Source: a virus (lineage: Duplodnaviria; Heunggongvirae; Uroviricota; Caudoviricetes). From it: a stretch of 48,662 nucleotides of DNA. Numbering within the stretch: position 1 is the first letter of the stretch; the number at the start of each line of letters is the position of its first letter. Made by a program: the position numbers and the translations under genes. The stretch lies in the IMG/VR virus record IMGVR_UViG_2547132418_000015; one strand, written 5' to 3'. Under the pieces are notes generated by a model that did no database searches, had not been told where the DNA came from, and saw nothing but the letters and a program-made list of their open reading frames with translations. Below are positions 1-45,933 of this stretch, piece after piece.

Positions 1-692
1 CAAATACGGCATCAGTTACCGTGAGCTGCAGGAGATGCTGGCTGAACGCGGAGTGAATGTCGATCACTCCACGATTTACCGCTGGGTTCAGCGTTATGCG
101 CCTGAAATGGAAAAACGGCTGCGCTGGTACTGGCGTAACCCTTCCGATCTTTGCCCGTGGCACATGGATGAAACCTACGTGAAGGTCAATGGCCGCTGGG
201 CGTATCTGTACCGGGCCGTCGACAGCCGGGGCCGCACTGTCGATTTTTATCTCTCCTCCCGTCGTAACAGCAAAGCTGCATACCGGTTTCTGGGTAAAAT
301 CCTCAACAACGTGAAGAAGTGGCAGATCCCGCGATTCATCAACACGGATAAAGCGCCCGCCTATGGTCGCGCGCTTGCTCTGCTCAAACGCGAAGGCCGG
401 TGCCCGTCTGACGTTGAACACCGACAGATTAAGTACCGGAACAACGTGATTGAATGCGATCATGGCAAACTGAAACGGATAATCGGCGCCACGCTGGGAT
501 TTAAATCCATGAAGACGGCTTACGCCACCATCAAAGGTATTGAGGTGATGCGTGCACTACGCAAAGGCCAGGCCTCAGCATTTTATTATGGTGATCCCCT
601 GGGCGAAATGCGCCTGGTAAGCAGAGTTTTTGAAATGTAAGGCCTTTGAATAAGACAAAAGGCTGCCTCATCGCTAACTTTGCAACAGTGCC
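1..692 (+). mobile_element. IS26 (IS6 family), 3' part ending with the terminal inverted repeat; the 5' part is at the window end
   Basis: IS6-family transposase ORF followed by TTTGCAACAGTGCC at 679-692, the reverse complement of GGCACTGTTGCAAA at 48309-48322; positions 1-231 are identical to 48432-48662. Confidence 0.93.
2..640 (+). CDS. tnpA: IS26 transposase, C-terminal part (N-terminus at 48372-48662)
   Basis: ORF 35..640 is open back to position 2; translation continues the 48372.. ORF (MNPFKGRHFQRDIILWAVRWY...YRAVDS | RGRTVDFYLSSRRN...). Confidence 0.93.
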   Translation, partial: KYGISYRELQEMLAERGVNVDHSTIYRWVQRYAPEMEKRLRWYWRNPSDLCPWHMDETYVKVNGRWAYLYRAVDSRGRTVDFYLSSRRNSKAAYRFLGKILNNVKKWQIPRFINTDKAPAYGRALALLKREGRCPSDVEHRQIKYRNNVIECDHGKLKRIIGATLGFKSMKTAYATIKGIEVMRALRKGQASAFYYGDPLGEMRLVSRVFEM

Positions 693-4808: not shown

Positions 4809-6288
4809 TAATCACCTCAATACTGACACCACCGGGAACAAACAACGGGTTGCTGATACCGTTCCTGCGGGCCAGCCGTTGCCAGTTCCGGCTGTTTCCT
4901 GTGTAACGGTACAGGGCCACCATTGCAGGCATCGTCTCCGGCAGACGGTGCGTTTCACTACCCGCCAGTTGCAGCCCGCGTTTTTCCAGGTCGGCAACAA
5001 CCAGCAGACGCAGTTGCGTAAGCTGAACGCTGTCTGTCGAAAAGCCCTGCTCAGATGCCGTCAGAATGACGGTATCCAGCGCAGCCCCCAGCATGGCGGC
5101 TGTTTTTCCGATATCGGACACACTTTCAAATACCGGGGGCGTGGCTGTACCACTGTCTGAAAAGGATACCTGTGAAAAGCCGCCGTCCGGGGTTATGGCA
5201 GTTAACTGTAACTGTCCCTGTGTGACGGTAGCAGATGTGCTGCTGGCCCCGCTGGCTGTGCCGGTTGTGGTGGACGGGGCATCCAGTACAGGTGCACGGG
5301 TGGCATTATCCCTCCGGCGACTGAAATCCAGTGCCGCAGTCAGTGCCTGGCTGGCAGCTTCTGCCCGGTATGTCTGCGCCGCTGCCAGCATGACGTAGTT
5401 CAGTGTGGCAATATTTTTTTCTGCAACCGGACTGTTGTACGAGGTTGTGATTGCCCCCTGTCTGCCTGCGGTGGCGGCATGGCGACGTTCGAACCGCTGC
5501 GCCAGACGGTTCCAGGTGGAAAATGCTGTCCGGGTATCGCATAACGATGAAACGCCGGATAACGCCCCCATCAGCGAGGAGGCCAGCATGGCTGGTTTAT
5601 TTATCAGGCCGGTCACAGAGCCTTTCATCGCAGAAAGCGATCCCATCAGACCGCTGACAGTCTGCGTAACCCCCAGATTGTCCACCGCATCACTGATATC
5701 ATCGATGACACCGGTTACAGCTTCCATCACGGCGGTTGCCGCCGCAGTGCCATCTTTTACGGTCTGCCAGACAGAGGACAGCGTATCTCCCAGAGAACCG
5801 GTTACAGCAACGGACTGTGCCGGTACGGCTGCACTGGTGTCTGTCTCTGCGTCCGGGGCAGTATCCTGCAACGACGGATAAACGGTAACGGTGAACGCGT
5901 AATAATTCAGTTCATCCGCTTTAGTGCGGCATTCCCATGAATCCACCATGACGGCCACAGTGCCGAAATCAGGATGTACCAGCTCACCGCTACCCGGAGC
6001 ATCAAGAGCATCCATCAGCGCACCCGCTTCATCTCTGGCAGTCTCTGCGTTGCTGTTCAGAATGCAGATGCTGAATGTGCGGGAGCGAAGCTTTTTCCCC
6101 AGGTCGTTGACCCCGCCGGTATCACGTAACGGGTACTCACGTTTAACCAGACGACGTCCGCCAGCCTGTTTTTGCTCCTCGATGACGAGAAACGGCACGT
6201 TACGGAACGTGCCTTTGCCGGTTGTTTTCCTGCCTCCACCGGTTTTATCCCGGACAGCATTAACGGCATTTAAAGCATCTTCAAACAT
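4801..6288 (-). CDS. DNA circularisation protein N-like tail protein (Mu gp43-like)
   Basis: 495-aa ORF directly downstream of the tape measure gene. Confidence 0.75.
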
Positions 6289-6292: not shown

Positions 6293-8368
6293 TTACCAGC
6301 CTGTAATGTAGTTATCGCCCGCGTAAATATTCAGCCCCATACCATCCTCGGTGACGCGGGAACTGGTCAGACGTAACCCCTCGCCAAGTTCGACGCGCAG
6401 CGAGGCTTCCGCATTCACTTTTTGCTCCTGCGGTTCCTTATCCGTGGCCGTCCACTTCTGATACAGGTCGGTTACAAAACCGCCCAGATACTCCCCGGCG
6501 ACACTGCCCAGCGTGGCACCGGCAACCGTACCCAGCGGTCCGGCAAGGCTGCCAACGGCACCGCCGAGCCATGCACCGGCTGTACTGCCAATTGCGCCTG
6601 CTTTTTCATGGGTTGACGCCTGCTCATCCATCAGGACGGGGGCAAGCTGGAGTGCCCCCATTACCGGGCCACCCAGACGTGACAACGCACGCCCCGCGCC
6701 TTTCCCCATCCAGCCCAGCGCCCCGGCACCTTTTGTCACAACCCGACCGATCGCACTGCCTGCAAGTTTGTTTCCGATACCGGAAAACCCCCCGCCAGCG
6801 GCACGCCCGGCATCAGCCAGCTTTCCGACCGCTCCCGTAACCAGTTGCCCGGCAGCACTGCCTGCAAGCCTGCTCAGAAGACCGGATTTACCGGGTAAAG
6901 GTAATGGTGCAGGCCGTGCCGTTACCGGTACGCCGGGTGGGGGTAATGCCAGAACAGGGCGTGGTGCAGGTAATGCCAGCGGCTGTGGCCCGGACAGCAA
7001 TAACGGCTGGGGGGGGAACAGGGGCGTCATGCCTTTGCCTTTCCGGGTGCGACCACCACGGCCACCGCTTCCGTAACCGCCGAACCCGTGAGGCCAGTTA
7101 GTGACAAACACACGCTGAATGCCGGTGCCCTGCAACAGCGTCTCAGACGTCATGGCATCCGGGACCGGCAGACCTGCCTGCCCACGTTTGCGGTTTCGCA
7201 TCCAGCGCCACATACGACGCCCGGTTTTAAACGGATAACTGGCAACCTGCCATGAGGGGTTTGCCACGGCCCAGCCTGCTCTCAGGGCTTTATTGGCAAG
7301 CCAGACAGACACCAGAACAGCAGCCAGTTTTTTCAGGCTGACAATATTCTGGTCAACCCATGCCAGCGCATCTTTACCCGGTTTCAGCCAGCGCCATAAT
7401 TCCTGCGCCGCGATTTTTACCTTTCTGAACGTGGTCAGGAATTTCTGACCAATGTTTTCTGCCAGTGCGTCCAGCTCCCCGGATTTATCCGCCGCATCGT
7501 GCCAGTTAAGCACCCGGCGCATCTCGTTCTTGATTTCTTCAAAGGGGCCGCTGTTTGCCACCTTCGTGCGAAACTCAAGCAGGTTGCCCTCCATCTGGGC
7601 CATCATCCCGTCCCAGGAGTTCATGGCAGCCGCCTGTGCGCCTTCTGACTGCTCCAGCAGGGTCCGGAATACCGTCAGAATGGCTTTCTTGCCCAGCTTG
7701 CCTTTTTCACCCAGCTTACGGATTTTTTTCTCATCCTTACCCGTTGCATCTGCCAGCACCTTGTAAACGTTGATACCGTAACCGGTCAGCAGGTTGGCGT
7801 CCGCCGCCGTGATTTGCTGGCGGGCAAACATCTGTTTGAACTGTAACGAAGCCCCCTGCGCGGTGGGTAAATCCCAGCCATGCATCGCGCCCTGATTCTG
7901 TAGCATGGTGATGAACTGTTTTACCTGGGCGTCAGTCATGCCAAACGCCGTTGATGTGCGGATTTCCTGCAGAACGCCGCCCAGCCCCCAGGTGGTTTCT
8001 TTTGCGTTCTGCTTCGCCCACGCCATCATGGCCTGTGCTCTGGCCTTATCGCCGTGATACAGCGAGTTCATGGCGATAATCTGCTGCTCACGCTGGGCGG
8101 CGGCACCAATAAACAGTTTATTGGCGGTGTAACCCACGCCAGCGATACCCAGCGCCCCGGCTGACAGCATTCGGAATGTACGGGTTGACAGTGAACCCAT
8201 TCTGTCAATGGCACCAGAAACGCGCACAACCTCCATACGCAGGGCACGAAGGGAACTTTGTCCGCTACGGGACAGGGCGTTTATCTGGTTCGAATACTCG
8301 CGGGAACGCCGGGAAAGATTGCCATTAAGATCAATAATGACAGACGCCTTTAAGCGTTTCCCGGTCAT
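6293..8368 (-). CDS. Tail tape measure protein
   Basis: 691-aa ORF starting MTGKRLKAS with a Gly/Ala/Pro-rich C-terminal part, between chaperone and baseplate genes. Confidence 0.85.
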
Positions 8369-12489: not shown

Positions 12490-13407
12490 TTACAGGTAGT
12501 CAGCGACAACCAGTTGCAGCTTGCCCTTCATCTCGTTGGAGACGGTGGTATTGCCATCCGCGAACAGTTCACGGTTAAGCAGTTGCTCTGCGGCTTTTTC
12601 CAGCCCGACCGGTACAACGATATGCGTCGGCTTCAGGCCCAGCTTCTTACCGCCATCACCTTCAAAAGAGCGCATCAGTTGCCAGCCCTTCCAGAGGTTA
12701 TCCAGCGTCAGATCGCCTTTTACCGCGACAGCCATCTGCCAGAAGCCGTAACCGGCAGCACGCCGGGCGCTGGCACCAAACAGGAACTCGTTATCCATAA
12801 AAACGTGGTCGTCATCGATACGGGTACGTGCGACCAGTTCGGGTTTGCGGCGCTCCTGGAAAATCAGCGGTTTGACTGCGCGGGAGCAGTCCAGCAGATA
12901 GAACGGCAGACCACTGAAGCTGTCCTGTTCAACGATGTTAGAGGTATTCTTTACGTCGCCCGTGCCGTCCACATTCGGATATACCGGATGCTCCTTGTCG
13001 AAGAAGTTCTGACCGTCATAGCAGTGCTGGGTAAAGCCATCTTTCAGAAGTTTAAAAATCAGCTCATCCGGCTGAACTGCCGCAGAACGCCCCATCTCCT
13101 GAAAAATCGGCGCATAAATACCCAGATTGTCATCCTCGAAGTCATCACGGGAAATACCCACGGTGCCTTCAAACGTTTTATTGGCGATGGAGTAGCCATG
13201 CGCTTGCATTTGCTGAATGGTTCGCTTACCCACCCATTCTTTCAGGGTCGGGAATTTACCCAGCCAGCCATAGGTATTGCTGCGGGTGGAAGAGTTCACC
13301 GCCATTGCAATTCTGCTGTACTGCGACGGGGCGTCTTCAAGACCGCCCTGAAAATCCTTACGCCAGGAGGTCATCAGGGCTTTAATGGATGCCGGGGTGA
13401 CAATCAT
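12490..13407 (-). CDS. Major capsid protein (Mu T-like)
   Basis: 305-aa ORF after the protease/scaffold gene. Confidence 0.88.
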   Translation of the reverse strand: MIVTPASIKALMTSWRKDFQGGLEDAPSQYSRIAMAVNSSTRSNTYGWLGKFPTLKEWVGKRTIQQMQAHGYSIANKTFEGTVGISRDDFEDDNLGIYAPIFQEMGRSAAVQPDELIFKLLKDGFTQHCYDGQNFFDKEHPVYPNVDGTGDVKNTSNIVEQDSFSGLPFYLLDCSRAVKPLIFQERRKPELVARTRIDDDHVFMDNEFLFGASARRAAGYGFWQMAVAVKGDLTLDNLWKGWQLMRSFEGDGGKKLGLKPTHIVVPVGLEKAAEQLLNRELFADGNTTVSNEMKGKLQLVVADYL

Positions 13408-14489
13408 TTTTCTTGTTCCTGTTTCATTTTCAGATACTCAGCCTCAGTAATGCCGAGCGCCTTCACTGCTGCCTGTTCATCAGCAGACAGCACCGCCACC
13501 GCCGGTTTTTCCTGTGACGGTTTTTTCGCTGTGGTGGTCTGCATGGCAGATAACGCAGCGATGGGCTGTTTTTCCTCAAGCTGTGCCGACAGTGCCGCCA
13601 CGCCAATCTGACCGCCAAGCTGTTCCAGGTAAGTGCGTTCGCTTTTGAAAATGCGGCCTTCCTGTTCCGCCTTGTCCAGAACGGCGCTCAGGCTGGCTGC
13701 GGCGCTTTGTGCAGTCGCCTGTGCCAGTTCATCACGCAGGGCGTTGTAGCTTTCCACCGGGACGTATTTCGTCAGGTCAACGGCGGCTTTCTGTGCCTTT
13801 TCCAGTTCGGCGGATAACGACGCCACTTTTCCGGCATCTGTTTCGAGTGCATCAAGCGCACTCAGGGCCGCACTGGCCTGTTCATCGGTGATGTCTGCAT
13901 TTTCGGGGACCGTCACTCCAAGACGCGCAAGCAGCTTGCGCAGCGTTTCATTCATGGGTTTGTTCTCCTGTTGAAGGATGTCGGGAAGGTCTGCCGCCAG
14001 TGCGGTCAGCTTTTTCATGCCGGTGGCACCGGGGTCATTGGTCAGCGCAGCAAGGCGGATTTGCAGCACCGCACCGGTGGCGGTGTCATACGGAAAAACC
14101 GCAGAGAGATAACCAAATTCGCCGTCATCGATGCGCTGCTGCGCCGCCGCCGTCCAGCGTGGGTGGATAAATAATCCTTCCCCTTCACGCCACTGCATTT
14201 CATCGGCGTTAAACCAGCCAGCCGCGACGAGTTGTTCCGGGGGTAATCCTTTGTCCTTACGTAGCTGGTTATGCTCGTAATCAATCAGTACGTCCTGGTT
14301 GAGCGCGCGAACGCCTTCAACCAGACGCCCGGCAATCTCACCGTCGATGAACCACCCCTGACCACCTGTCACATCAAACGGGCGACCATCACGGGCACTG
14401 AAATGACCGGCAGGCAATAGCTGGCACCAGCCGTCATCGTCAATGGACAGCGCACTCAGTGCGGCAATGCCAATCGCGTGTTTTTTCAT
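13404..14489 (-). CDS. Head maturation protease/scaffold (Mu I-like)
   Basis: 361-aa ORF with Ala/Glu/Gln-rich coiled-coil-like C-terminus. Confidence 0.85.
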   Translation of the reverse strand: MKKHAIGIAALSALSIDDDGWCQLLPAGHFSARDGRPFDVTGGQGWFIDGEIAGRLVEGVRALNQDVLIDYEHNQLRKDKGLPPEQLVAAGWFNADEMQWREGEGLFIHPRWTAAAQQRIDDGEFGYLSAVFPYDTATGAVLQIRLAALTNDPGATGMKKLTALAADLPDILQQENKPMNETLRKLLARLGVTVPENADITDEQASAALSALDALETDAGKVASLSAELEKAQKAAVDLTKYVPVESYNALRDELAQATAQSAAASLSAVLDKAEQEGRIFKSERTYLEQLGGQIGVAALSAQLEEKQPIAALSAMQTTTAKKPSQEKPAVAVLSADEQAAVKALGITEAEYLKMKQEQEK

Positions 14490-14685
14490 GTCCTGCTGCT
14501 CATCATGGTTTGTGAGCAGTCAGTTTGCGGGAGGTGCGGGAAAATCTGGGGTTATGCTATTTGAGTACTGGAGAAAGAAAGTGGAAGGAAGATAAAACGG
14601 GATTCATACACCGTTAAATACCGGTTTAAAAATCCCGTGGCGCGTTTTAAAAAATCTGTGCAGCTGATTTTATGCCTGATTCTGT
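14490..14685. promoter_or_regulatory. G-I intergenic region: hairpin terminator after G, likely late promoter for I, possible strong gyrase site
   Basis: 196-bp non-coding gap about 18.05 kb from the prophage left end; stem CGGGATT...AATCCCG followed by T-run on the minus strand. Confidence 0.4.
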
Positions 14686-15156
14686 TTATTGCCTCAGAGC
14701 GGCGCTGACGCGTTTTCTGATGGCATCAAAAATTTCCTGTTCCCCGGTCTTATCCAGCCCCATATAAGGACGCGCAGGAACGCCTGCCGGGCGGGGTGCC
14801 ATATCGGGTGTACCGCCCCACTGATGAATGGCAGCATAAATTTTTGGCGAACCAATCAGGGCATAATCCTGTCCATAATCGGTGGTAATACTGCGTGCCA
14901 GATCGCCATGCAGGGTAAGAATACTGCCCGGAACAAAACCATGATCCTGACGCCATGCCTGCCACGAATCGCTCCATGCTTCCCAGCCTTTCCCTGTATC
15001 CGGATCTGCCTGCCGTTCAAATGCCTGTTCCGTGGATGACAGCAGCGCCGCAGACATCACACGGGGAATGGCGCGGTCACGTGTGACGGTTCCCAGTTCA
15101 TCCAGCGCAAGCTGAATACGTCGCACATCCACGGCAACGTTCATATCAAGACTCAC
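14686..15156 (-). CDS. Virion morphogenesis protein (Mu G-like)
   Basis: 156-aa ORF following the F-like gene. Confidence 0.8.
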   Translation of the reverse strand: MSLDMNVAVDVRRIQLALDELGTVTRDRAIPRVMSAALLSSTEQAFERQADPDTGKGWEAWSDSWQAWRQDHGFVPGSILTLHGDLARSITTDYGQDYALIGSPKIYAAIHQWGGTPDMAPRPAGVPARPYMGLDKTGEQEIFDAIRKRVSAALRQ

Positions 15157-16472: not shown

Positions 16473-17991
16473 CCAGACGCCCCCATATATCGGCAACAAA
16501 AATGGCACGGGTCAGCATGTCGATAAGTTCTGCATCATCCATCTGCGGATATAATGAAGCGGCTTTGTTCATGGCGGCTTCCGGGCCATCTTTCAGCACA
16601 GAAAAAATGACGGGTTTCAGCAGGGGATCAACCGAACGCTGCCAGTCTTCCGGTGACACGCCCATCCGGTCGATATCATCCTCCTGCGGGATATCTTCAG
16701 CGGATAATGCGGCTTCTTTCTGCGGACCGTTATCCGGGACAACCGGTTGAGCAGTAAACACGGCTTCGTCACCGACCGGCTGTGGAATATGGAGTTTTTC
16801 CTGTATCCAGGAGACCGGAATACGCATTCCCGCCGCCAGTTTCGGAATGGCGTCAGACAGTGCCGTAATATCACCCGCTTCACTGGTATCAAACACAATG
16901 CCCGGCAGGCGGTTAATATCAATGGTGCTGTCACTGTTCAGTGCCAGCAGGGGATAAATCAGGTCACGGTTAATACTGCGGGCAAGCTGGCCCACATCCG
17001 CGTTACGGATTTCCCGGCGAACCTCATCATGCACTTCACCCAGCGACCGTGCACCTTTATCGCCGGCCTCTGTGGTCAGGGTGCCGCCCAGAATGGCTTT
17101 TGAAATCGCTTTTTCTGCCCAGCCAATCATCGCCATAAAGGGGTCTGACTGACCATCTGCGGCGCTCTGAAAATCCAGCGTCATCCCCATCGGAATAATG
17201 CCACCGGCACGTCGCCCGATATCCATCACGGCCTGCATCAGCGTGGCTTTCTCACGGTTCGTGGAGCCGGTCGGATATTTACCGACGCGCATGGGGAGTC
17301 CGTAAATTTCCAGAAACTCTGCAAAATCACGCACGGAATAGTTTTTAAAAATAAAAGGCCAGATAAGCGTGCGCACAAGGCCATTGGTGCCAACGTACCC
17401 GGTGCGGGATTTGGCCCGGTGCATAAACCAGCCGAACGGTTGCAGCTCCAGCCCGTGATAAGACGCATCACACAGGCGTAATTCGTTCAGATTGTCGGGG
17501 TTCGCACAGAACAGCGCCGGATCGCGATGATGCAGCGCCACCGGCACGCGCATTTTGCCCAGCCATCCCCATTCAATCTCCTGCATGGAATAACCCTTGA
17601 GAATGGCATCACCGGCATCAAACAGGGCATCTTCAAACCACGCCGCATCATGCAGATATTCATTCAGCATGTCGGCGTCTTTTTTCTCCTGTGCGCTGGC
17701 ATCACGTGCCGGAGCGATGCGCCATTCCAGCGCCTGAATGGCAAGCCGGCGTTTGCTCAGTTCGGAAAAAAGGTGGGTGTCCTTTTCTTCCATATCAAAG
17801 GCCAGGTCAGCCTGTGCGGTCAGATCACCGCGTTCGGCATCACGCAGCATCTGCGCGGCCCGGTTCGGCGTCACACCACTGGAAGGATGCTCCTGCGTAC
17901 GCTTCATGACCATTGCCAGCTCATCGCTGCGGGTCTGCATTTCATCGTCAAAATCAAACGGCTGCCCGGAAATATCCAGAATACGGCCCAT
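16453..17991 (-). CDS. Portal protein (Mu H-like)
   Basis: 512-aa ORF directly downstream of the large terminase. Confidence 0.88.
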   Translation of the reverse strand: MGRILDISGQPFDFDDEMQTRSDELAMVMKRTQEHPSSGVTPNRAAQMLRDAERGDLTAQADLAFDMEEKDTHLFSELSKRRLAIQALEWRIAPARDASAQEKKDADMLNEYLHDAAWFEDALFDAGDAILKGYSMQEIEWGWLGKMRVPVALHHRDPALFCANPDNLNELRLCDASYHGLELQPFGWFMHRAKSRTGYVGTNGLVRTLIWPFIFKNYSVRDFAEFLEIYGLPMRVGKYPTGSTNREKATLMQAVMDIGRRAGGIIPMGMTLDFQSAADGQSDPFMAMIGWAEKAISKAILGGTLTTEAGDKGARSLGEVHDEVRREIRNADVGQLARSINRDLIYPLLALNSDSTIDINRLPGIVFDTSEAGDITALSDAIPKLAAGMRIPVSWIQEKLHIPQPVGDEAVFTAQPVVPDNGPQKEAALSAEDIPQEDDIDRMGVSPEDWQRSVDPLLKPVIFSVLKDGPEAAMNKAASLYPQMDDAELIDMLTRAIFVADIWGRLDAAADH

Positions 17992-19646
17992 TACCAGCCC
18001 CCTCGTTCAAACTGGTGATAATCATCAAAATCATCGTTATCAACATCATCACCACGGTGGCGTGGTGGTAGCGGACGAACGCTGTCCTCGTCGATAACAA
18101 AACCATTCATATAAGACGCCCTGACAGCCATACAGAGCGCCACGGCAAAGTCGCCATGTCGTCGGCCTTTACCACCTTCATCTTTTGTGCGCCCCTTATC
18201 AATCTGCGGAATACCTTTGTCCACCTTGATGTGGAGCAGGTCATCAAGTGTGGTCTGGTGCCGGGCAATCGTGATGTTCTGCGCCTCAAACTCGCCTTTC
18301 AGTTTGGGCATCCACTCCTGATACCAGGATGCGGTCAGATTCACACAGTCGATCATCTCCGGGCCATAAATCAGACGGGCGGCTTCTGCCAGATAACCGC
18401 CGTTACCGGTGGCATCAAATGCAGCGCCGGTAAAACGGGGCAAACGGGACAGAATGAATAAAAGGATTTGTCGCTGCTGGTCATAGGTCACATTACGCAG
18501 CTCCACGCGGAAACATTCGCGTTTGCGTAAGTCAGGCGTGATGGCAAGCGGCACAAACACCGTCAGGTCGCCACGGCGTGCAAAGTCTTCGCCCAGTACG
18601 TGTTTATTGAGCGGCGACAGCGCATCGAGCAACGGGAGCAGCTCCTGTTCACACCAGTCCTGAACGATGCCGTGGCGCATTTGTGGTGTCAGCGATTCAA
18701 AATCGTCCGGGGCTTCAAAACGCAGAACCGGGATATCCCGCGCGGGTGTCATGGCAGCTTCAATCAGCACGCGTGACAGATAAGCGCCCCCGGATTTTTT
18801 AGGAATGCAGCCGTATTCCTCGTCGGCGCTCTCTTTATTCGGCGCATTCCGGTACAGGCCATCACGCCAGGCTTTTTCCGCTTCCGGCGACCACGGCTGA
18901 TTCGTGACGTAACAGATACGCCGGTACAACCCGTCAGCGATGGCATCATCCAGCGTGATGCGGTGAACGCTGTAATCCTTGCGCCCCTCGCGCGCATCCT
19001 GAATGTACTGGTTAAACAGGTTATCGACGCCGTTATGTGTCGATATGATGCGCACGCTGGCACCCCACATGTTTAGTGCAAAGGCCGCTTTCAGCAGTTC
19101 GTCCAGGGCTTCATGGAATGCCGCCTCATCAATCACCACGTCCCCCTGCAAACCACGCAGGTTAGACGGACGGCTTGACAGCGCCTGTATCTTAAATCCG
19201 CTGTTCGGAAAGCGGATCATGTAGGTGAGGATTTCTTCTTTTTTGTCGCTGTCCCAGAAGGTCTGCTCCCAGACGTCAGCCTTTGCCAGCTGGTTAAAGG
19301 CGCGGGCAAACAGGGCACAGGCGGCGATGTATTCCAGCGCCATTTCCTGACGGGAACCCACATAAAAGACGTTGCGACCACCGCGACGCTTCGGCTTTGC
19401 GGCCGTCATGACATTGCGGCCCGCTTCAGCCCATGTCAGACCGGTACGACGGGATTTTTCAGCGATGCAAATCTGGCTTTCATCCTCAAACCAGCGGCGC
19501 TGATAGCCCAGAAAAACCGGTTCATTGCGGGGCTGTGCTTCCCCGATATCGGTCACGATATTCACGCCGAGCAGTCCGGCTTCCTCACGCAGGTTGATTT
19601 TGCGGGGCGCATGAAGGGCTTTAAGATTGTTTTCTCTGGTGTTCAT
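17991..19646 (-). CDS. Terminase large subunit
   Basis: ORF 17991..19838; start placed at ATG 19646 (MNTRENNLKALHAPRK...) to avoid overlap with the small subunit. Confidence 0.88.
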   Translation of the reverse strand: MNTRENNLKALHAPRKINLREEAGLLGVNIVTDIGEAQPRNEPVFLGYQRRWFEDESQICIAEKSRRTGLTWAEAGRNVMTAAKPKRRGGRNVFYVGSRQEMALEYIAACALFARAFNQLAKADVWEQTFWDSDKKEEILTYMIRFPNSGFKIQALSSRPSNLRGLQGDVVIDEAAFHEALDELLKAAFALNMWGASVRIISTHNGVDNLFNQYIQDAREGRKDYSVHRITLDDAIADGLYRRICYVTNQPWSPEAEKAWRDGLYRNAPNKESADEEYGCIPKKSGGAYLSRVLIEAAMTPARDIPVLRFEAPDDFESLTPQMRHGIVQDWCEQELLPLLDALSPLNKHVLGEDFARRGDLTVFVPLAITPDLRKRECFRVELRNVTYDQQRQILLFILSRLPRFTGAAFDATGNGGYLAEAARLIYGPEMIDCVNLTASWYQEWMPKLKGEFEAQNITIARHQTTLDDLLHIKVDKGIPQIDKGRTKDEGGKGRRHGDFAVALCMAVRASYMNGFVIDEDSVRPLPPRHRGDDVDNDDFDDYHQFERGGW

Positions 19647-22068: not shown

Positions 22069-22140
22069 GCTTCCCTGAAAAAATGCGCTGATGGCAGTCT
22101 AAAAAATCAGATGGCAGGTGCGGGATTATGGTGACAGGAA

Positions 22141-22163
22141 ATAACCGGCAGGATGCCGGTTAT
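22141..22163 (-). terminator. Hairpin at the 3' end of the C gene
   Basis: ATAACCGGCAGGATGCCGGTTAT inverted repeat overlapping the C stop codon; U-tract is weak. Confidence 0.35.
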
Positions 22164-22582
22164 TTTGGGCTTTCAGGTGAGAACAGATCAGGCTGATGAC
22201 GTCGTGTATGCAGCTTTCTCTGGCGGGCAATAATCTGGTAGATCTGCGGCTGGGACAGGCGATACTGGCGACGCAGTTCTTCCATGTTACGACCATTGAA
22301 CTGGCAGTAAAGCAAATCGTCGCGTAACGCGGTCAGGATCGTATCGCCGCAGGGGATGTAAAACTGCCGCCCGCCCAGAAAACAGGACAGGGCAACGGCC
22401 TGTTTACGGGCAAGCTCACGGGGATTGCTGACGTTCTGGCGTTTCAGTTCGTTTTCCAGAATATCAATCAGATCAACCACTGAACGGGGCCAGCGTGATT
22501 CCAGTTCCGGGGCCGGGATGTTATCAATATGCCCGATTAACTGGCGAATTGCCGGATCGTGTTCAAATAAATCATGCTGCAT
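22160..22582 (-). CDS. C: Late transcription activator C (Mor/C family)
   Basis: 140-aa ORF paralogous to the upstream 129-aa Mor-like ORF; located just before lys as in Mu. Confidence 0.85.
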   Translation of the reverse strand: MQHDLFEHDPAIRQLIGHIDNIPAPELESRWPRSVVDLIDILENELKRQNVSNPRELARKQAVALSCFLGGRQFYIPCGDTILTALRDDLLYCQFNGRNMEELRRQYRLSQPQIYQIIARQRKLHTRRHQPDLFSPESPK

Positions 22583-24312: not shown

Positions 24313-24342
24313 TTGCTCACCTCTCATATTAAGGAATGAGAT

Positions 24343-24759
24343 ATGAAAATTGATTATGACGAGATAGCCAGAATATTTGATGTTTTTCTGGAGGCCGACA
24401 CCGCATTCATTCGACTGGAAGATGTCGGCTGGGATTGTTCTCAGCGGCACAGCGACAGCCATCAGAAGCTGGTTTTCCATCTTCTGTTGCTGGTTGAAAA
24501 TGGTTTTATCAGCAACAGATATCTGGAAACAGGCACCGCAAAAAGCATTGGTCTCACCCCAACAAGCCTCGGATATTCATATTCAGGCACCAGTGTCAGA
24601 CTTACACAAGATGGTCATGATTTTGCGAAAGCACTACATCAAAAACCCATTCTTGAGCGCATAAAACAGGACCTTGCCGACGCCCCGATGACGCTCGTAA
24701 CAGACGTCGGCAAACAGTGGTTAACCTCGTTTCTTAAAAAGAAACTCGGGATTGAATAG
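24343..24759 (+). CDS. Hypothetical 138-aa protein on the opposite strand inside the phage early region
   Basis: ATG with AAGGAA ribosome-binding site; diverges from gemA across a 30-bp gap; 3' end overlaps the 24721..25032 gene by 39 nt. Confidence 0.55.
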   Translation: MKIDYDEIARIFDVFLEADTAFIRLEDVGWDCSQRHSDSHQKLVFHLLLLVENGFISNRYLETGTAKSIGLTPTSLGYSYSGTSVRLTQDGHDFAKALHQKPILERIKQDLADAPMTLVTDVGKQWLTSFLKKKLGIE

Positions 24760-25032
24760 TTCCCTGTTCATACGTTGCAGCGCATCAAGGGCGGCGACAG
24801 CCGCCACTTTATTGTTACCATCAGCAATAGTGCGGAGATTTTCAATAATCCAGTGAGGACTCAGTGACTCAGCAATAATGCCAAACCGGTACGCCATGAC
24901 TTCATCAATAGCTTTTTCATGAGACGACTCATATACAAAACTCACAAAGTCATGCACTTCTTTTTTCGGCAAACCACCGGCAATCAGCAGGGCGGCAAGC
25001 TCTTCTGATTTTGAAAATACACCATTATTCAT
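24721..25032 (-). CDS. Hypothetical early-region protein
   Basis: ORF 24721..25047 (GTG); ATG at 25032 with AAGGTG ribosome-binding site is the likely start. Confidence 0.55.
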   Translation of the reverse strand: MNNGVFSKSEELAALLIAGGLPKKEVHDFVSFVYESSHEKAIDEVMAYRFGIIAESLSPHWIIENLRTIADGNNKVAAVAALDALQRMNRELFNPEFLFKKRG

Positions 25033-25033
25033 A

Positions 25034-25727
25034 TCACTCACCTTCACAATTCATGCACGCCGTGTCATCGCCCATATCGCAGTGGTTGCATTTCTGCCCA
25101 CCACAATGAGGGCACTCTTTCAGATATTCAGGGTTTTCATTACCGCAGGTCGGGCATTCCTGTTTCACCGTGGTGAATGTCCCCAGCCACGAATACGAAT
25201 TTTCACCGACTGTCTTTTTCCCCGTTATTTCTGAATCAGAACTAATACAGTGTTTTTCAACCCATGCCACACGTGCTGAATTCAGGTGGCATCTGGCCAA
25301 TTTGCTTTCGTTTCTGTAATGTTTGCTGTCCCGGTTAAATGGCAATTTCTCATTCAGCCCTGCTGAGATAAAGTCCGCATGTAATTGTTCTAATGCGGCT
25401 TCACTGTCTGCACCGGTTGATTCAAAATAATCGTAAGCATTGGCACATAATCCGGCAGCCCGGGTAAATACATCATCGCCCGTCTCCATTGCCCCATTCT
25501 TTAACCATCGGTTGTAGGCTGTATAAAAACTATAAAGTTGCTTTCTGATACAGGTAGTGGCAGTTCCGCCATTAACTGACGCTGGCGTAACATAGCCAGC
25601 TCTGCATAAAGCAGAACGAAGTATATCCAGAACCTGCCAGGCATCTTCTCCTTCAATCACGCTACAGTTTTTGTACACCAGGACGTCCCGGCCACAACTT
25701 TTATCAATACCCCAGTCTTCAAATTTC
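25034..25727 (-). CDS. Hypothetical protein with C-terminal Cys-rich (zinc-ribbon-like) tail
   Basis: ORF 25034..25792; likely GTG start at about 25727 with GGAGG ribosome-binding site overlapping the upstream stop; C-terminus CPTCGNENPEYLKECPHCGGQKCNHCDMGDDTACMNCEGE. Confidence 0.55.
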
Positions 25728-26258
25728 ACAACCAGCCTCCTGCACCACACCCGGTGCTGATGAAAAATCAATGATGAGATAACGCAGTACATGGTCGGTG
25801 ATATTCCAGGCGCTGGAACTGCAAATAAACCGCCCCAGCCGGATATCGATATAAGCCATCACAAAACGGGGCATTCCCTGTTTGCACATCTCGTCATCCA
25901 CTTCTGCAACGATGTGAACGGACTCACAGGTCAGTACGCCTGTCGCAAACTCTTTTGCCAGTGCGGGGATGGTATTACCTTCCACCCAGGGTAATGAGCG
26001 ACGCCAGTTGCACCACACCGCATCATCAACAGCAGGCTGCTCAGTTGCGTTTCGTCTTACCGGCGGCGTCTGACGCGGGCGCGGAACGTCATAAAATCCG
26101 TTGCATTCGGTGAGCACTCCGGCATCAACCGCATCACGCAGGAAATACACCATTGCGGAGGGTGGCATCTGCATTTTTTCAGCCAGAACCCCGCAGGTCA
26201 GGCGTCCGTAAGCCCGTAATAATGTGCTGACACCATTCAGAATTTTTGCATCAACCAT
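25719..26258 (-). CDS. Hypothetical early-region protein
   Basis: 179-aa ORF with GAGGA ribosome-binding site. Confidence 0.6.
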   Translation of the reverse strand: MVDAKILNGVSTLLRAYGRLTCGVLAEKMQMPPSAMVYFLRDAVDAGVLTECNGFYDVPRPRQTPPVRRNATEQPAVDDAVWCNWRRSLPWVEGNTIPALAKEFATGVLTCESVHIVAEVDDEMCKQGMPRFVMAYIDIRLGRFICSSSAWNITDHVLRYLIIDFSSAPGVVQEAGCEI

Positions 26259-26356
26259 GTTTTATTCCTCAGTAATCTGTTTCAGGCGCGAGCAATCCCC
26301 TGACGCATCGCGCCATAATTAAAAGAATGTGAATTAATTAAATATTAATGGTGGTA

Positions 26357-26881
26357 TTAAATACCGGCTTCCTGTTCAAACGGAATAATGGAAAAATCTT
26401 CAATTCCCGATTTAACCGTAATTCCGGCAACACCTGCGACGGCTTTTGGTTCCAGTAAAATCGCCTCCTTGTTGATTTCCTGCTTCGTGCGAATAAAGCG
26501 TTGCAGGCCAAGACGCTCCAGCGTTTCCATCACTGCATCCATACCACGAATACTTACTGATGGTGGACGGCCCCGCCACGATACATCACCGGTGACAAGA
26601 TTCGCCGTCTTCACTTTGCCGCCGTTCGTCAGTTCGTCGCGGTTCGCTTCACACCATCCCTGAACGCCTTTTGAAAGGGTTTCAATATCGGTTTTAATCG
26701 GTGCAATCCGGGCCGCAAATTTCTCCGTAATTTCCGCGATGGCATCATTCATTTCCGTTTCCAGACGTGATGCTTCGCGCTGTAAATCCCCGATGCGTTT
26801 AATATCGGTAATCACCGCATCGCGGTTTTGTGGCACATAAGCCGCTGCGGCACTCTTGATACGTTTTGCTGGTTTAGCCAT
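26357..26881 (-). CDS. gam: Gam-like host-nuclease inhibitor
   Basis: 174-aa ORF MAKPAKRIKSAAAAYVPQNRDAVITDIKRIGDLQREASRLETEMNDAIAEI..., same length and position as Mu Gam. Confidence 0.85.
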   Translation of the reverse strand: MAKPAKRIKSAAAAYVPQNRDAVITDIKRIGDLQREASRLETEMNDAIAEITEKFAARIAPIKTDIETLSKGVQGWCEANRDELTNGGKVKTANLVTGDVSWRGRPPSVSIRGMDAVMETLERLGLQRFIRTKQEINKEAILLEPKAVAGVAGITVKSGIEDFSIIPFEQEAGI

Positions 26882-26900
26882 AAATTAAAGCTCCTGTTAA

Positions 26901-27200
26901 TTAATATCCGCTGTATACAATGCTGGATACAGCTCGATTGCTTAATTCCATCTTTCGGGCAATGACATGAATATCCAGCCCTTCTTTATAAAGTTCACGA
27001 CATAAATATTTGTCGTGTTCACTGATTCGGTATACACACAATGATATTCCGTGCCTTCTGGCATGTGCCCGGAGGGCGGTTGTGGCGACTTTCAGTTTTT
27101 CCGCCATTTCTTCAACGGTCATTTTCCCGACGTTGGCTTCGATAAATTCCCGGTCTTCGCGTGACCAGCGCTTACGATTACACTTCATGTCAGCCACCAT
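26901..27200 (-). CDS. Hypothetical early-region protein, possible helix-turn-helix
   Basis: 99-aa ORF in the semi-essential region. Confidence 0.5.
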   Translation of the reverse strand: MVADMKCNRKRWSREDREFIEANVGKMTVEEMAEKLKVATTALRAHARRHGISLCVYRISEHDKYLCRELYKEGLDIHVIARKMELSNRAVSSIVYSGY

Positions 27201-27620
27201 TCAGTACAGCAGAGGCTCGCGCAGTGATGCCGGAATATGCCGCAGCGATAACTGAACCGCTTTCAGGGCAAGCGAGGAATAACAGCAGCGCGCCCAGCCT
27301 TTTGCCATTAACCGGTAATCGCGCCAGATACGCTGCCACATTTCACGGGCCTCAGGGTCTGATGCGCAGATGTATTCCCGGTCCATGACGTACTCCCATA
27401 AATCCACGTTGAACGCACCGCCAAATGCAATGGCGCGGGATATGCTTTCGCCGCAATAACGCGCACAAATGCTGTAATGGTCGAAAGCAATCAGGTAAGT
27501 CTTTTCACCACAATCATCAACTTTCCGGGCGCAAATAAACTCGCGTAATTCACCACCGTTGTTATTGCGTTCCTGAATTCGGATTAATGCCTGAATTTCA
27601 TTTCGGATTTTGACGTTCAT
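27201..27620 (-). CDS. Hypothetical early-region protein
   Basis: 139-aa ORF. Confidence 0.5.
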   Translation of the reverse strand: MNVKIRNEIQALIRIQERNNNGGELREFICARKVDDCGEKTYLIAFDHYSICARYCGESISRAIAFGGAFNVDLWEYVMDREYICASDPEAREMWQRIWRDYRLMAKGWARCCYSSLALKAVQLSLRHIPASLREPLLY

Positions 27621-27640
27621 TGTCAGCGTTCCTTTGCGAA

Positions 27641-27910
27641 TTAATGTCTGGCTGTATTCGGGTTATAGCTGAATAATTCCCCCTCGGCTTCCAGCCCAAG
27701 CTCCCTGGCTGATTTCAACAACTCCTCGGTCGCTTTTTTAATGATTTCAGGAGCCATGCTCTTGATGATGCCTGCCATTACATCATGTGGCCCGGTCTGG
27801 TCCTCAGGTGAGGATTCTTCCAGTCGCACATTCATATTTACGGCAAAACCTCCATTTTCCTGAAACTCAATATTTCTTGTATTGTTAAATTCAAAGATTA
27901 CTTTTGCCAT
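27641..27910 (-). CDS. Hypothetical early-region protein
   Basis: 89-aa ORF. Confidence 0.5.
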   Translation of the reverse strand: MAKVIFEFNNTRNIEFQENGGFAVNMNVRLEESSPEDQTGPHDVMAGIIKSMAPEIIKKATEELLKSARELGLEAEGELFSYNPNTARH

Positions 27911-29374: not shown

Positions 29375-31363
29375 TTAAATGGCTTTTTTACGTCTGTTCT
29401 GTTCCAGAATATCCAGCGAATGATTCAGATATTCATCACGCTCAGTTTCGTATTCATCATCACGCTCCTGATTCTTCACCCGTTCCGTATTACCGGAAGG
29501 CCGGAAAATGCCGACAATTCGTGATTCTGGTGCTTCAGGTTCGGCTATCTGCGGCAGCAGCTCTGCCACTTCCAGTGCATCCATTTGTTTCTGTGCCTTA
29601 ATCGCTGCTTTCGTCGCAGATTTCAGTTGTTTCTGGCGGCGGCGATATTCACGGCCTGCCGCAGCATCATTAAACGCAACAGGTGCCAGACATTCCGCTT
29701 CACAGATAAACCGACCGTCCAGGGTGTAACAATAAACCGTGCTGTGTAGCTGCTGCGGATCAAACCTGACCACAACTTTTTTCACGCCGGCATTCATTAA
29801 TGCCATGTTGTAATAAACGTTTTTCGCGCCTTTAAGGGAGCCGCCAACTTTAAGCGTAAACTCGCCTTTGCGTGAAACGTTCACCGCCTCGGCAGGCAGT
29901 AACAGCATCCGTTTTTGTTCTTCGGTTGGCTTACGCACAATCGTTCTGGCGTATTCACGCTCGAAAACATCATCAAACGAGAGTTTGCCCCCGCACATTT
30001 CTGTTTCACGGCCTGTTCTGGCATTGAACATCGCCACACCTTCGGCAAGGTTTTTCAGAAACAGCTCTGCATCAACAGCGCGGTTGCCATAGTTATCAGG
30101 TTTTGCCTGCGGATTTGGCCCCGTATATGCGCCAGCCAGTGCCGGATGCTTATCAACGTATTCCTCAAGCCCACCAACACCGAAAGCACGTTCAACAGGT
30201 TTTGCCTGGCCCCAGCCTTTACCGGCAACAACGCTTGTCCAGTGCATTTTCGCACCCATCAGTAAAAACAATCCCTTTGGATCGTCTTCTTTCACCTTAA
30301 AGCGGTAGCGATTGGGCGCGCCTCCCGTCAGCCATTTATTCGCAGCACCACGGGTGTTATCAATGGTGATGTGAAAATCCTCCGGGATACCGTAGCGAGT
30401 CACAACATCCATGAACGAGAGGCGAATTGAATCAATGTTCTCGCTCACATCGCAGCGCCAGCCCAGAATTTTTCGGGTTTTCACATCCTGCCAGAACCAT
30501 GTTTTCGGGCGGATCACATCACCGTTAAACCAGCGTACAAAGACGTTATGCAGATAACCGTCGCCGTTGATCCACTGCATGGCGTCCAGGTGTTCCACAG
30601 TTCGCTGCTGTGCCGGTATCAGATGCATCAGTGCATGTTCACCTTCACGACAGGCAACAACCATTGCCTCGTCCAGTTGCTGAATCCGGCGAAAGGCCGT
30701 GGCACGGGAGGGAATCCTCCAGCCATGCTCGCGGGCTGCCAGTTCCAGACGCTCATAACATTTGCGGAAGGCGGGTTTTTCCGGTCGCAGATAATCTGCA
30801 ATCAGAAACTGCCAGGCATCCTCGTCAAATTCACTTTTGTGAACATTGCGACGGGATGCACCACGTCCATCAACAAGTGCAGCCGCCCAGTCAGGCTTCG
30901 CAAACTTCTGTACCTGGTAATACTTGTCCCGCAAAGTGGATGCGCTGACCTGGTAATGCCCTGCAACGGTCGCAAAAGCCGTTTTCGTTGAAATCCCCTG
31001 GTTCAGCATTTCGTCTGCAGCCTGAACCGCAGGCAACCATTTTTCAGCAAGTCTGCGCTGGGAATCGCTGGCTTTATCCCATTTGCTCCACAGCACCTCA
31101 CGATCATAATCATGGGCTTCCAGCGTGGGGCGGGCGATTTCAAAACGGCCCAGGCTTGTTTCAATTCTCCCTTGTTGCAACAGAATTTCAGCACGTAATG
31201 CGACAGGGAATGATTTGATATTGAATTCAAATGATACACCTTTAGTCCCTGCAACCTGTCTGAACTCCCAGCCTTCTCTTTGTGCCTTACGTGTAATGTT
31301 AGTGGCTTGCTTTGGTAAACCTGCCAAACCGAGCAACTCTTTTGCTGTATACCATTCTTTCAT
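29375..31363 (-). CDS. A: DDE transposase A
   Basis: 662-aa ORF, Mu A-like over most of its length with a divergent N-terminal DNA-binding region. Confidence 0.93.
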
Positions 31364-31370
31364 AGCGCAC

Positions 31371-31592
31371 CTAGTATCGAGACGGCCAAATATCTTGCGG
31401 TGTCATTCCCAGTGCATCTGCAATGATTTTCTCCGCTTTCGGATATCTCTTATCCAAAGCATTTTTTAATGTTGAAGACGAAAGATGATTAGATCTTCCC
31501 AATTCAGCTAGTGACATATTGCGTTTTCGTAGCTCTGCAACGATGTCAGCTCTGTGCCAATCTTGGCGGTTAGTTCTTTTATTCATATGCAT
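31371..31592 (-). CDS. ner: Ner-like early transcriptional regulator
   Basis: 73-aa ORF ending ...[14 protein letters not shown], first gene of the early operon. Confidence 0.85.
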
Positions 31593-31777
31593 TTCATGTA
31601 ATCCTTTCAGATTCCCCCGCGAGCTACGCTATAAAGTAGCTCACGGCATATCGTGCAATGTAGTGTGGAATCACTTTCAAATCAATAGTGATTTGAAAGG
31701 ATTTGCCATGATTTCATATAACAGCATGATTTTTATATGAATTTATTTTGTCTCTATTGAAATCACTAGGATTTTAA
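31593..31777. promoter_or_regulatory. Divergent early/repressor promoter and operator region
   Basis: Between divergent ner and c; palindromes AGCTACGCTATAAAGTAGCT (31622-31641) and CTTTCAAATCA-ATAG-TGATTTGAAAG (31674-31699). Confidence 0.7.
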
Positions 31778-32302
31778 ATGATGTCTTTTGAAATCAAAGA
31801 ATGGTTTAATGCGAAAGAGCTGGAAGGGATGCCTGGTGTACCAAAGTTGGCGACTAACATTACCAGGAAAGCTGTGGCGGAAGATTGGGTAAAACGTCAG
31901 CGTCACGGTGGGAAAGGTGTCGCTTATGAGTATCACATCAACAGTCTGCCAGAAGAAACACGCAGGGCCATTAAAGGAGCCTCACTTTCTGATAAACCAG
32001 TGCATACATCAATCGCCCATACAGTTGATGAGAGGCTAATTTATGCAATGAGCTTCTTAACACCAGATGAGCAGGCCGCAGCTGTGGAGATCATTCGTGT
32101 GGCAGGGATTAAAGGACTTATGCCTACAATTGTCAGTAAAGATAAGGCATTAGAGGCATTAGGGATTACTGTGGAGCAACAGAAAACCCTGCAAACTCTT
32201 CAGGCATTACCACCGGAAAAAGTGAGAGAGATTTTGTCTCAGTATGAAGGCAAAGAACATAATTTCCCTGTAAGAGAAAACGATGTAAAGAAAGCTGTAT
32301 AA
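31778..32302 (+). CDS. c: Repressor c (Mu/D108 family)
   Basis: 174-aa ORF with AGGA ribosome-binding site; C-terminus ...KVREILSQYEG...KKAV as in Mu-type repressors; divergent from ner. Confidence 0.85.
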   Translation: MMSFEIKEWFNAKELEGMPGVPKLATNITRKAVAEDWVKRQRHGGKGVAYEYHINSLPEETRRAIKGASLSDKPVHTSIAHTVDERLIYAMSFLTPDEQAAAVEIIRVAGIKGLMPTIVSKDKALEALGITVEQQKTLQTLQALPPEKVREILSQYEGKEHNFPVRENDVKKAV

Positions 32303-32641
32303 CAACCAGGTAATAGCTAAGACATAAACTTCACTCCAGGCAATTACATATGTAAGATACCCAAACAGTGATGATTGTTTTTGACACACATCACTTGCTG
32401 AAAGCCTGGTTGTTACCGTTTTTGAAGCATTTTTGAAGCTGTACTTGAAATGATGCGTGAAGTAATTGCTTTTCGTGTCTTTAATGAATCAAAAGCTGTT
32501 TCCAACAATCTTTCGCGTTTCAAGATGTAACGGCTAAAATCTGTCCTACAGGCTTGCAAGCCCCACTAAATCTAATCCCGCCAAATCCCGAATAATCCAA
32601 TGTCCTCCCGGTTTTTTTCGTACTTCAAGTGAATCAATACA
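32303..32641 (-). other. Prophage left end with transposase binding sites; terminus at 32641
   Basis: Minus strand from 32641 reads TGTATTGATTCACTTGAAGTACGAAAAAAACCGGGAGGACATTGG...; repeated TTTTCGT-type motifs. Confidence 0.85.
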
Positions 32642-32654
32642 GTGCTGATTTATG

Positions 32655-32957
32655 TCAGACGGGATTTTGCTTATCAATTATTGAGAACAGAAATTTTCCT
32701 GAATCATCAATACTATACTTAGCAAGTAAAGGTGTTTTCTCATTTATCTGCTTGAGTGCAGGATCAAGGAAAGATCGTTTCAACTCTGCCAAGTTCTTCT
32801 GCTGGGATTCCGGTAAGACGAAACGGTCATTTAACCAAGCATGAGTAGTAACCCATAAGCCTGAAGATTTGAATTGAGCAAGACTTTCATAAAGGCGGAT
32901 CGTCCGGGGATTTCGAAGACTGCCACAATCGCGGAGCGAGTAGGTGGTGAACTGGTT
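32655..32957 (-). pseudogene. Remnant of a second Rep_3-family initiator gene (C-terminal about 99 codons)
   Basis: Minus-strand translation QFTTYSLRDCGSLRNPRTIRLYESLAQFKSSGLWVTTHAWL...INEKTPLL...DKQNPV aligns with the C-terminus of the rep gene at 40612-41334; cut by IS1 at 32957/32958. Confidence 0.75.
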
Positions 32958-32972
32958 GGTAATGACTCCAAC

Positions 32973-33476
32973 TTACTGATAGTGTTTTATGTTCAGATAA
33001 TGCCCGATGACTTTGTCATGCAGCGCCACCGATTTTGAGAACGACAGTGACTTCCTGCCCAGCCTTGCCAGATGCTGCCTCAGATTCTGGTTATGCCGCT
33101 CAATTCGCTGCGTATATCGCTTGCTGATAACGTGCAGTTCTCCCTTCAGGCGGGATTCATAAAGCGGCCAGCCATCCGTCATCCATACCACGACCTCAAA
33201 GGCCGACAGCAGGCCCGGAAGACGCTCCAGCGTGGCCAGAGTACGCTCACCAAAGACGCGTGCCACCACCGTCCTGCACATCCTGCCATAGGCGTAAAAT
33301 AACCAGCGCTGACGTGATTTAGCCCCGACGTAGCCCCACTGTTCGTCCATTTCCGCGCAGACAATGACGTCACTGCCCGGTTGTATGCGTGAGGTTACCG
33401 ACTGCGGTCTGAGTTTTTTAAGTGACGTAAAATCGTGTTGAGGCCAACGCCCATAATGCGGGCGGTTGCCCGGCAT
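32973..33476 (-). CDS. insB: IS1 InsB (transposase frame, made as InsAB' by frameshifting)
   Basis: 167-aa ORF ...[22 protein letters not shown]... Confidence 0.88.
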
Positions 33477-33670
33477 CCAACGCCATTCATGGCCATATCA
33501 ATGATTTTCTGGTGCGTACCGGGCTGAGAGGCGGTGTAAGTGAACTGTAGCTGCCATGTTTTACGGCAGTGAGAGCAGAGATAGCGCTGATGTCCGGCAG
33601 TACTTTTACCGTTACGCACCACGCCTTCAGTAGCTGAGCAGGAGGGACAACTGATGGAGATGGAAGCCAC
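33395..33670 (-). CDS. insA: IS1 InsA
   Basis: 91-aa [46 protein letters not shown]... Confidence 0.9.
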
Positions 33671-33729
33671 TGGAGCACCTCAAAGACACCATCGTACACT
33701 AAATCAGTAAGTTGGCACCATTATCCGGC

Positions 33730-35650: not shown

Positions 35651-35674
35651 CTCTACCGGTCTCCCGGTGAGCAC

Positions 35675-35690
35675 TGTATGTATAACCAGT
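35675..35690 (+). promoter_or_regulatory. LexA (SOS) box upstream of the umuD-like gene
   Basis: CTGTATGTATAACCAG fits CTG-N10-CAG, 26 bp upstream of the ATG. Confidence 0.75.
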
Positions 35691-35715
35691 AAAATTAGAG
35701 TGTCAGGAGGAAAGA

Positions 35716-37417: not shown

Positions 37418-37419
37418 AA

Positions 37420-39678: not shown

Positions 39679-39684
39679 TTATCA

Positions 39685-45914: not shown

Positions 45915-45933
45915 TTGAGCATAGGAGGAGTCT

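Follow-up and report, generated by a model that had tools for sequence, protein, structure and literature searches.

[quoted passage not shown] Its known properties are quinolone-induced cleavage with a 4-bp stagger, a long-lived complex and processive supercoiling (PMC6379681, PMC11626157). The site is cut in vivo at single-nucleotide precision even when placed at an ectopic chromosomal position (PMC6379681), and gyrase binding can therefore be regarded as a property of the DNA itself. Processive supercoiling from this central site helps the two ends of Mu to synapse (PMC10052514, PMC3820752). The SGS has a role both in end synapsis and in the prophage domain (PMC3820752), and its deletion delays replication by about 100 minutes and disrupts that domain (PMC10052514, PMC3820752). 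Other DNAs, such as pSC101 par and the pBR322 site at 990, are likewise preferred gyrase binding and cleavage sites of about 130–150 bp, with no sequence relation to the Mu site. According to a review, plasmid gyrase sites of this kind were unable to replace the Mu SGS for Mu replication; only the site of the Mu-like prophage of E. coli O157 Sakai could (PMC10052514).

In the GenBank record of Mu, the interval homologous to the one examined here holds the gyrase cut site (17879^17880), a terminator called by TransTermHP (17908–17953) and the late promoter P_I (17977–18043). The phage activator C acts at isomerisation at P_I, as opposed to polymerase recruitment at Pmom (PMC4461284). In the Pseudomonas Mu-like phages JBD30, D3112 and DMS3, an anti-CRISPR locus is found between the G homologue and the protease/scaffold gene, and Mu is without it (PMC3993853).

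We analysed a stretch of 48,662 nucleotides, hereafter the window, from the IMG/VR virus record IMGVR_UViG_2547132418_000015. An earlier note, made from its sequence alone, had singled out an intergenic gap of a Mu-like prophage. We are highly confident that this gap is a G–I control region in which three known elements overlap, namely the SGS, a hairpin followed by a T-run, and P_I. The feature as such is already known: it is the well-studied control region of Mu, in a near letter-for-letter match.

Results

Prophage Identity and Setting

Window positions 693–32641, on the minus strand, are a Mu/D108-type transposable prophage. One of its ends was located with the Mu left-end sequence TGTATTGATTCACTTGAAGTACG, which has a single exact match in the window, where none would be expected by chance:

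Prophage left end (attL terminus), 32619–32641, minus strand: exact and unique match; position 1 of D108 aligns here.

The prophage is represented by 31.9 kb, at 96–98% identity to Mu/D108, with no sign of decay in A, B, C, mor or the late promoters. D108 is the closest relative over 24 kb (97.5%, in an alignment that begins at D108 position 1). The first ~1.5 kb of the prophage (window 31176–32641), comprising the ends, the repressor, ner and the start of A, is D108-like and not Mu-like: Mu 1–359 is only 79.6% identical to the left-end region of the window, and Mu 360–1518 is unmatched. Around the gap, a 601-bp query was 99.2% identical to phage Mu and 98.2–99.2% identical to 12 other Muvirus records; the 13 phage records covering at least 80% of this query were all Mu-type (98.2–99.2%). 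The prophage is a mosaic. The semi-essential early region (window 24313–27877) also contains segments without a match between Mu and the window, corresponding to Mu 4817–5046, 6947–7488 and 7665–8232.

Coordinates around the gap convert as Mu = 32545 − window. As the left-end match is unique, the gap can be placed 17,957–18,152 bp from the prophage left end, in agreement with the ~18.0 kb from position 32641 proposed in the earlier note, and the cleavage centre described below lies 17,974 bp from that end. The same note had put the gap at the centre of the prophage. This can be inferred only from relatives of 36.7–37.2 kb: if the prophage were about 37 kb long, as they are, the site would fall at about 48% of its length. 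Centrality itself, which the Mu SGS needs to function optimally, is beyond demonstration here, since the prophage is broken by IS26 and its right end lies outside the window. A partial IS26 occupies window positions 1–692 and its inverted repeat TTTGCAACAGTGCC terminates at 692. At the 692/693 junction it adjoins Mu-like DNA equivalent to Mu 31810, within the tail-fibre gene S, at 31.9 kb from the left end. The prophage right end was not found within the window, which terminates inside IS26. At this junction the prophage is either interrupted or truncated.

The DNA past the left end (window 32642–48662) is plasmid backbone, colinear at 99.7–99.8% with plasmid unnamed4 of E. coli ET826 (NZ_CP100905.1). 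This flank contains a truncated rep pseudogene, IS1X3, the group II intron ltrA, umuDC, parAB, repB, vapBC and ISEc15. We take its layout to be of the IncR type. Upstream of the plasmid repB, at 40071–40521, are tandem repeats with many offset self-matches (85–90%), which are probably iterons. The Mu region occurred 48 times in 5,426 complete E. coli genomes, each time on the chromosome, and PLSDB gave one plasmid match only, a distant one (81%); a plasmid-borne Mu-type prophage therefore looks rare.

Such a setting invites the reading that the site is intact in sequence and biologically idle, sitting in a truncated plasmid-borne remnant, where it may still bind gyrase with no role in end synapsis or replication. 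The junction of IS26 with Mu 31810 inside S and the lack of right-end sequence in the window fit this reading, as does the other flank, a plasmid backbone with IS1, a group II intron and IS26-rich relatives. However, since the window ends in IS26, it is just as possible that IS26 simply inserted here and that the prophage continues on its other side. The closeness of the 31.9 kb to Mu/D108 and the lack of decay in the genes and promoters listed above also speak against a remnant, and gyrase binding is independent of prophage integrity. We regard an idle remnant as possible, if somewhat unlikely; should the right end have been lost, the end-synapsis role of the site would be moot in this prophage.

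The G–I Gap and Its Strong Gyrase Site

The gap, at 14490–14685, measures exactly 196 bp and separates two open reading frames on the minus strand:

Gene G, 14686–15156, minus strand: virion morphogenesis/neck protein of 156 aa; matches Mu gene 31 (G), Mu 17389–17859.
Gene I, 13404–14489, minus strand: head protease/scaffold of 361 aa; matches Mu gene 32, Mu 18056–19141.

G closes the lys late operon, and I opens the operon that P_I drives. Compared with Mu 17860–18055, the gap is identical at 194 of 196 positions. The two mismatches are C>T at Mu 17883 (window 14662) and T>C at Mu 17961 (window 14584); the latter, a C at the +84 edge of the right arm, is common to the window and D108. Moving the Mu annotations to the window places the cut site at 14665/14666, the terminator at 14592–14637 and P_I at 14502–14568.

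The earlier note had proposed a strong gyrase site in this gap, to be checked by alignment with that of Mu, and the alignment bears it out: the 150-bp SGS matches Mu 17813–17962 at 149 of 150 positions, and the GenBank cut site falls in the homologous interval. By this comparison, the gap and the 3′ end of G together carry the Mu SGS at 14583–14732. The site is not confined to the gap, as it extends 47 bp into gene G, whose 3′ end holds the left arm. Its parts are the following:

SGS left arm, 14693–14732: −65 to −26 (Mu 17813–17852), inside G; identical to Mu; limits of PMC6463007, by coordinate transfer.
SGS core or gate segment, 14643–14692: −25 to +25 (Mu 17853–17902); 49/50 identical to Mu, with the difference at 14662; limits of PMC6463007.
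SGS right arm, 14583–14642: +26 to +85 (Mu 17903–17962); 59/60 identical to Mu, with the difference at 14584.
Predicted 4-bp gyrase cleavage stagger, 14666–14669: plus strand 5′-GCT^GATT, minus strand 5′-ATAA^AATC; Mu 17876–17879, by coordinate transfer.
Single difference from Mu in the SGS core, 14662: Mu 17883 C>T (A on the window plus strand); +8 from the nick, −4 on the other strand.

The stagger was positioned from cryo-EM, in which the scissile bonds are A/A on one strand and 5′-T/GATTT on the other (PMC11626157); these correspond to Mu 17876–17879 and agree with the +7G/+8C numbering of PMC6463007. We also considered the GenBank cut 17879^17880 as the cut of the top strand, which would bring the variant inside the stagger, and rejected it, since this is the bottom-strand bond according to PMC11626157 and PMC6463007. 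The likeness to the Mu SGS thus covers the G–I position, the cleavage tetranucleotide (AATC/GATT) and the whole right arm bar one base at its edge. The site differs from that of Mu in having T, not C, at Mu 17883, and in being part of a prophage interrupted by IS26 and located in plasmid DNA.

The right arm bears phased A/T versus G/C bending signals. With respect to A/T–G/C periodicity of 10–11.5 bp, positions 14587–14636 take third place among the independent 50-bp segments of the window (quantile 0.9999 at 50 bp, falling to 0.945–0.995 at segment lengths of 60–80 bp). Gyrase binding and supercoiling have been assayed on a 133-bp Mu SGS fragment, and this fragment can be aligned to the window through the cleavage site and the right arm. 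The strongest 10–11-bp A/T–G/C periodicity of the window is found elsewhere, at 26661–26740 within the gam coding sequence. We rejected this segment as another gyrase site candidate, as its signal is probably protein-coding periodicity.

Variation among Relatives and the +8 Allele

For comparison we used 23 IMG/VR loci and 2 genome loci encoding relatives of G. The gap is 196 bp long in 18 of 19 close relatives. Variation among these 19 is uneven: 7 of 17 columns vary from the G stop to the cut (16 bp), as against 1 of 27 in the stagger and right half of the core, 2 of 61 in the right arm and 3 of 70 in P_I. The hotspot is window 14671–14683, which includes Mu 17870 (G/A) and 17874 (A/G), with each base at roughly half frequency. 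This distribution fits a dispensable, tolerant left side and an essential, constrained right side of the SGS. The SGS alleles of D108, SfMu and other Muvirus records share with the window the 196-bp gap, an invariant right arm and an invariant P_I. The D108-type alleles are changed at three positions to the left of the cut (Mu 17862, 17870 and 17874), whereas the window has a Mu-type left side and its own T at +8. The early and immunity region of the window is D108-like.

In more diverged Mu-like prophages, whose G is 54–69% identical, the gap still measures about 200 bp and TTTTGAA-type repeats recur in it with a phasing of ~11 bp; a CATAACCC-like box is also retained, and usually a hairpin with a T-run. 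One locus of the set, L024 (IMGVR_UViG_2531839192_000008, positions 1971–2173), combines an I that is 99% identical to that of the window with a G of only 84% and a strongly diverged gap. The latter keeps phased TTTTTGAAGG repeats, a GC-rich hairpin with a T-run and a GATAACCCC box, and L024 looks like a recombinant with a second SGS type.

The T allele at 14662 is present in 4 of the 19 close relatives. Two of the three T-bearing IMG/VR loci (L008 and L009) are almost identical to the window, and the third (L018) is only 95.9% identical over 3.4 kb. Given its occurrence in these three loci, T is a real minority natural allele. It was found in none of the 41 complete E. coli genomes carrying the region and in none of the 13 phage records.

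Gyrase prefers −4G/+8C in the core of its site, with an isoleucine inserted between +8 and +9 (PMC12324340, PMC2094056), and +8C, adjoining this intercalating residue, is one of the three strongest preferences of the cleavage core (PMC2094056, PMC12324340). The variant at 14662 removes the preferred +8C next to the intercalation point, so the strength of this SGS could differ from that of Mu. The two alleles were judged by the published consensus string and by qualitative preferences only.

On these grounds one may hypothesize that the C>T change makes a functionally different SGS allele, probably with weaker core affinity, or alternatively a stronger one, like the nuB up-mutations. The change affects one of the most significant core preferences, at the very step where isoleucine intercalates, and in the other half-site −4G is missing even from Mu (A at 17872), which leaves the preferred base in neither half here. 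Single-base changes near the cut (nuB1 and nuB103, placed at +3 and −3 from the cleavage centre; PMC6463007) are also known to alter SGS strength. However, 14662 coincides with none of the reported nuB positions (+3/−3 from the centre; +4 in the pMP1000-derived fragment), the activity of the SGS is credited chiefly to the right arm, which is unchanged here, and the presence of T in at least two genetic backgrounds (the lineage of the window, L008 and L009, and that of L018) indicates that it is tolerated. All considered, we find a functional difference unlikely.

That the window variant might itself be a nuB up-mutation was rejected, since its change, at Mu 17883, is not at a position reported for nuB, although the sources on nuB are mutually inconsistent. 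The descriptions in PMC6463007 disagree internally (nuB101 versus nuB103, and G-A versus the base actually present), and the pMP1000-derived 133-bp “Mu SGS” fragment (PMC6379681, supplementary table S2) has G>C relative to the Mu reference at 17881.

The Hairpin as a Putative Terminator

The second element of the gap was characterized by folding the minus strand:

Hairpin with T-run, 14592–14638, minus strand: putative intrinsic terminator of the lys-to-G operon, from the fold and from TransTermHP in Mu (17908–17953).

The structure lies 48 nt past the stop of G. In its 9-bp outer stem, ACGGGAUUU (14638–14630) pairs with GAAUCCCGU (14605–14597), and the UUUUAUCUU T-run follows on the 3′ side; the inner stem has 4 bp (ACCG/CGGU). 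Its folding energy is −19.8 kcal/mol (z = −3.4), and none of 200 shuffles was as stable. The hairpin, which has an interrupted stem and no more than four T in a row, was not called in a simple consensus terminator scan of 14300–14900, a result that says little about an interrupted structure of this kind.

In the earlier note, the hairpin was said to be likely to terminate the upstream unit. The hairpin and the T-run are indeed there, and the termination is a reading of the sequence: the lys-to-G late transcript probably ends here, as suggested by the TransTermHP prediction and the fold. The structure is not separate from the SGS, since it lies wholly inside the essential right arm, and it could be a mere by-product of the phased A/T and G/C blocks of that arm, in which case the lys transcript would read into I. 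Its interrupted stem, long loop region and short U-run (UUUUAUCUU), together with the silence of the consensus scan, are in keeping with this idea. Against it, the fold is more stable than all 200 shuffles and TransTermHP calls the hairpin in Mu. In diverged relatives, moreover, the phased repeats and the hairpin with its T-run are separate, adjacent elements (AAAAUGGAUC...GAUCCAUUUU in the L007 gap, z = −4.1), which suggests that both functions are kept, and the existence of a distinct C-dependent promoter just downstream is readily understood if transcription from upstream stops. We consider the by-product explanation improbable and retain the hairpin as a probable terminator.

The Late Promoter P_I and Its Activator

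The third element is a late promoter, and the window also encodes what it needs in trans:

Late promoter P_I, 14502–14568, minus strand: 67/67 identical to Mu 17977–18043.
Gene C, 22163–22582, minus strand: trans-acting activator needed by P_I; 98.6% to Mu C over 140 aa in tblastn.
Plys, 22076–22142: C-dependent late promoter, present in the window.
P_P, 5143–5209: C-dependent late promoter, present in the window.

The middle promoter Pm is present as well. Within P_I, the conserved box CATAACCCC lies at 14548–14556 and a −10-like hexamer, CAAACT, at 14522–14527, in register with the −10 of the other late promoters; there is no −35. An 86-nt I-promoter oligonucleotide, from which C-dependent transcription was obtained in vitro (PMC4461284), has an exact match at 14495–14580. 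With this match and the full identity of P_I, the candidate late promoter of the earlier note can be given its name. No sigma-70 consensus promoter was found on either strand of 14300–14900 in a simple scan, as expected for a promoter that depends on an activator (PMC2582627). P_I has in common with Plys, P_P and Pmom a weak −10, a CATAA(C/T)CC box some 25 bp further upstream and the lack of a −35; it differs from these promoters in being located directly downstream of the SGS and the hairpin.

Further Readings and Coding Capacity of the Gap

It is tempting to bring the +8 allele and the plasmid setting together, and to see in the C>T change a naturally selected tuning of the SGS, with the site serving as a supercoiling or stability element of the plasmid, in the manner of pSC101 par and independently of phage biology. 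If true, the change would alter cleavage-core affinity by the intercalating isoleucine, in a copy carried on a resistance-plasmid backbone. We hold this to be very unlikely.

The gap contains no phage-sense open reading frame longer than 19 aa with an ATG, GTG or TTG start. Five frames of at least 20 aa overlap it, all of them antisense and mutually overlapping, and no Rfam family matched within it. The slot is the same one that holds the anti-CRISPR locus of JBD30, D3112 and DMS3; unlike in those phages, in the window, as in Mu, it carries no gene, just cis-acting DNA. Hence, the statement of the earlier note that the gap is free of cargo and of anti-CRISPR-like genes stands, and its remark that other Mu-like phages have such cargo at this place, and Mu has not, agrees with the literature (PMC3993853). 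The notion that the gap encodes a small protein like the 42-aa “gp31.5” of D108, annotated as a CDS at 17914–18042 of the homologous gap (GQ357916) and with its matching reading frame open in the window, was rejected as extremely improbable, because that CDS starts with ATC and crosses the hairpin, no ATG, GTG or TTG start yields more than 19 aa in the window, Mu records are without the annotation, and no equivalent frame is kept in diverged relatives, one of which (L027) is without any of at least 15 aa.

Discussion

What the window shows directly is its sequence identity to Mu, the genes on either side of the gap, the hairpin fold, the gene for C and a gap devoid of genes. From them, and by analogy with Mu, a working model of the region can be drawn. 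Host gyrase would bind about 150 bp (14583–14732) and cut with a 4-bp stagger at 14666–14669. The phased right arm (14583–14642) would wrap round one GyrA C-terminal domain, which would allow highly processive negative supercoiling. In Mu, such supercoiling forms a loop with the SGS at its apex, so that the two prophage ends meet, the transpososome assembles and replicative transposition proceeds fast. For the present prophage, binding and cutting by gyrase, the part played in end synapsis and the dependence of transcription on C are all inferred from Mu experiments on near-identical DNA.

On the transcriptional side, the hairpin and T-run (14592–14638, minus strand) would probably end the lys-to-G late transcript. 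P_I (14502–14568), with its weak −10 and no −35, would fire only when activator C binds the box upstream, and would then drive I, T and the downstream head and tail genes. It is worth stressing that gene G and the putative terminator both share sequence with the gyrase site, G through its 3′ end.

Taken together, these results make the gap a clean positive control: one of the best-characterised cis-acting sites known in phages was found from raw sequence, and comparison base by base confirmed it. For annotation, the cleavage stagger, the two arms, the hairpin and P_I can now all be given exact positions in the window. Some research value may also lie in the minority +8 allele, which can be compared with the reference site in gyrase assays, and in the unusual setting of a Mu-type prophage in plasmid DNA beside IS26.
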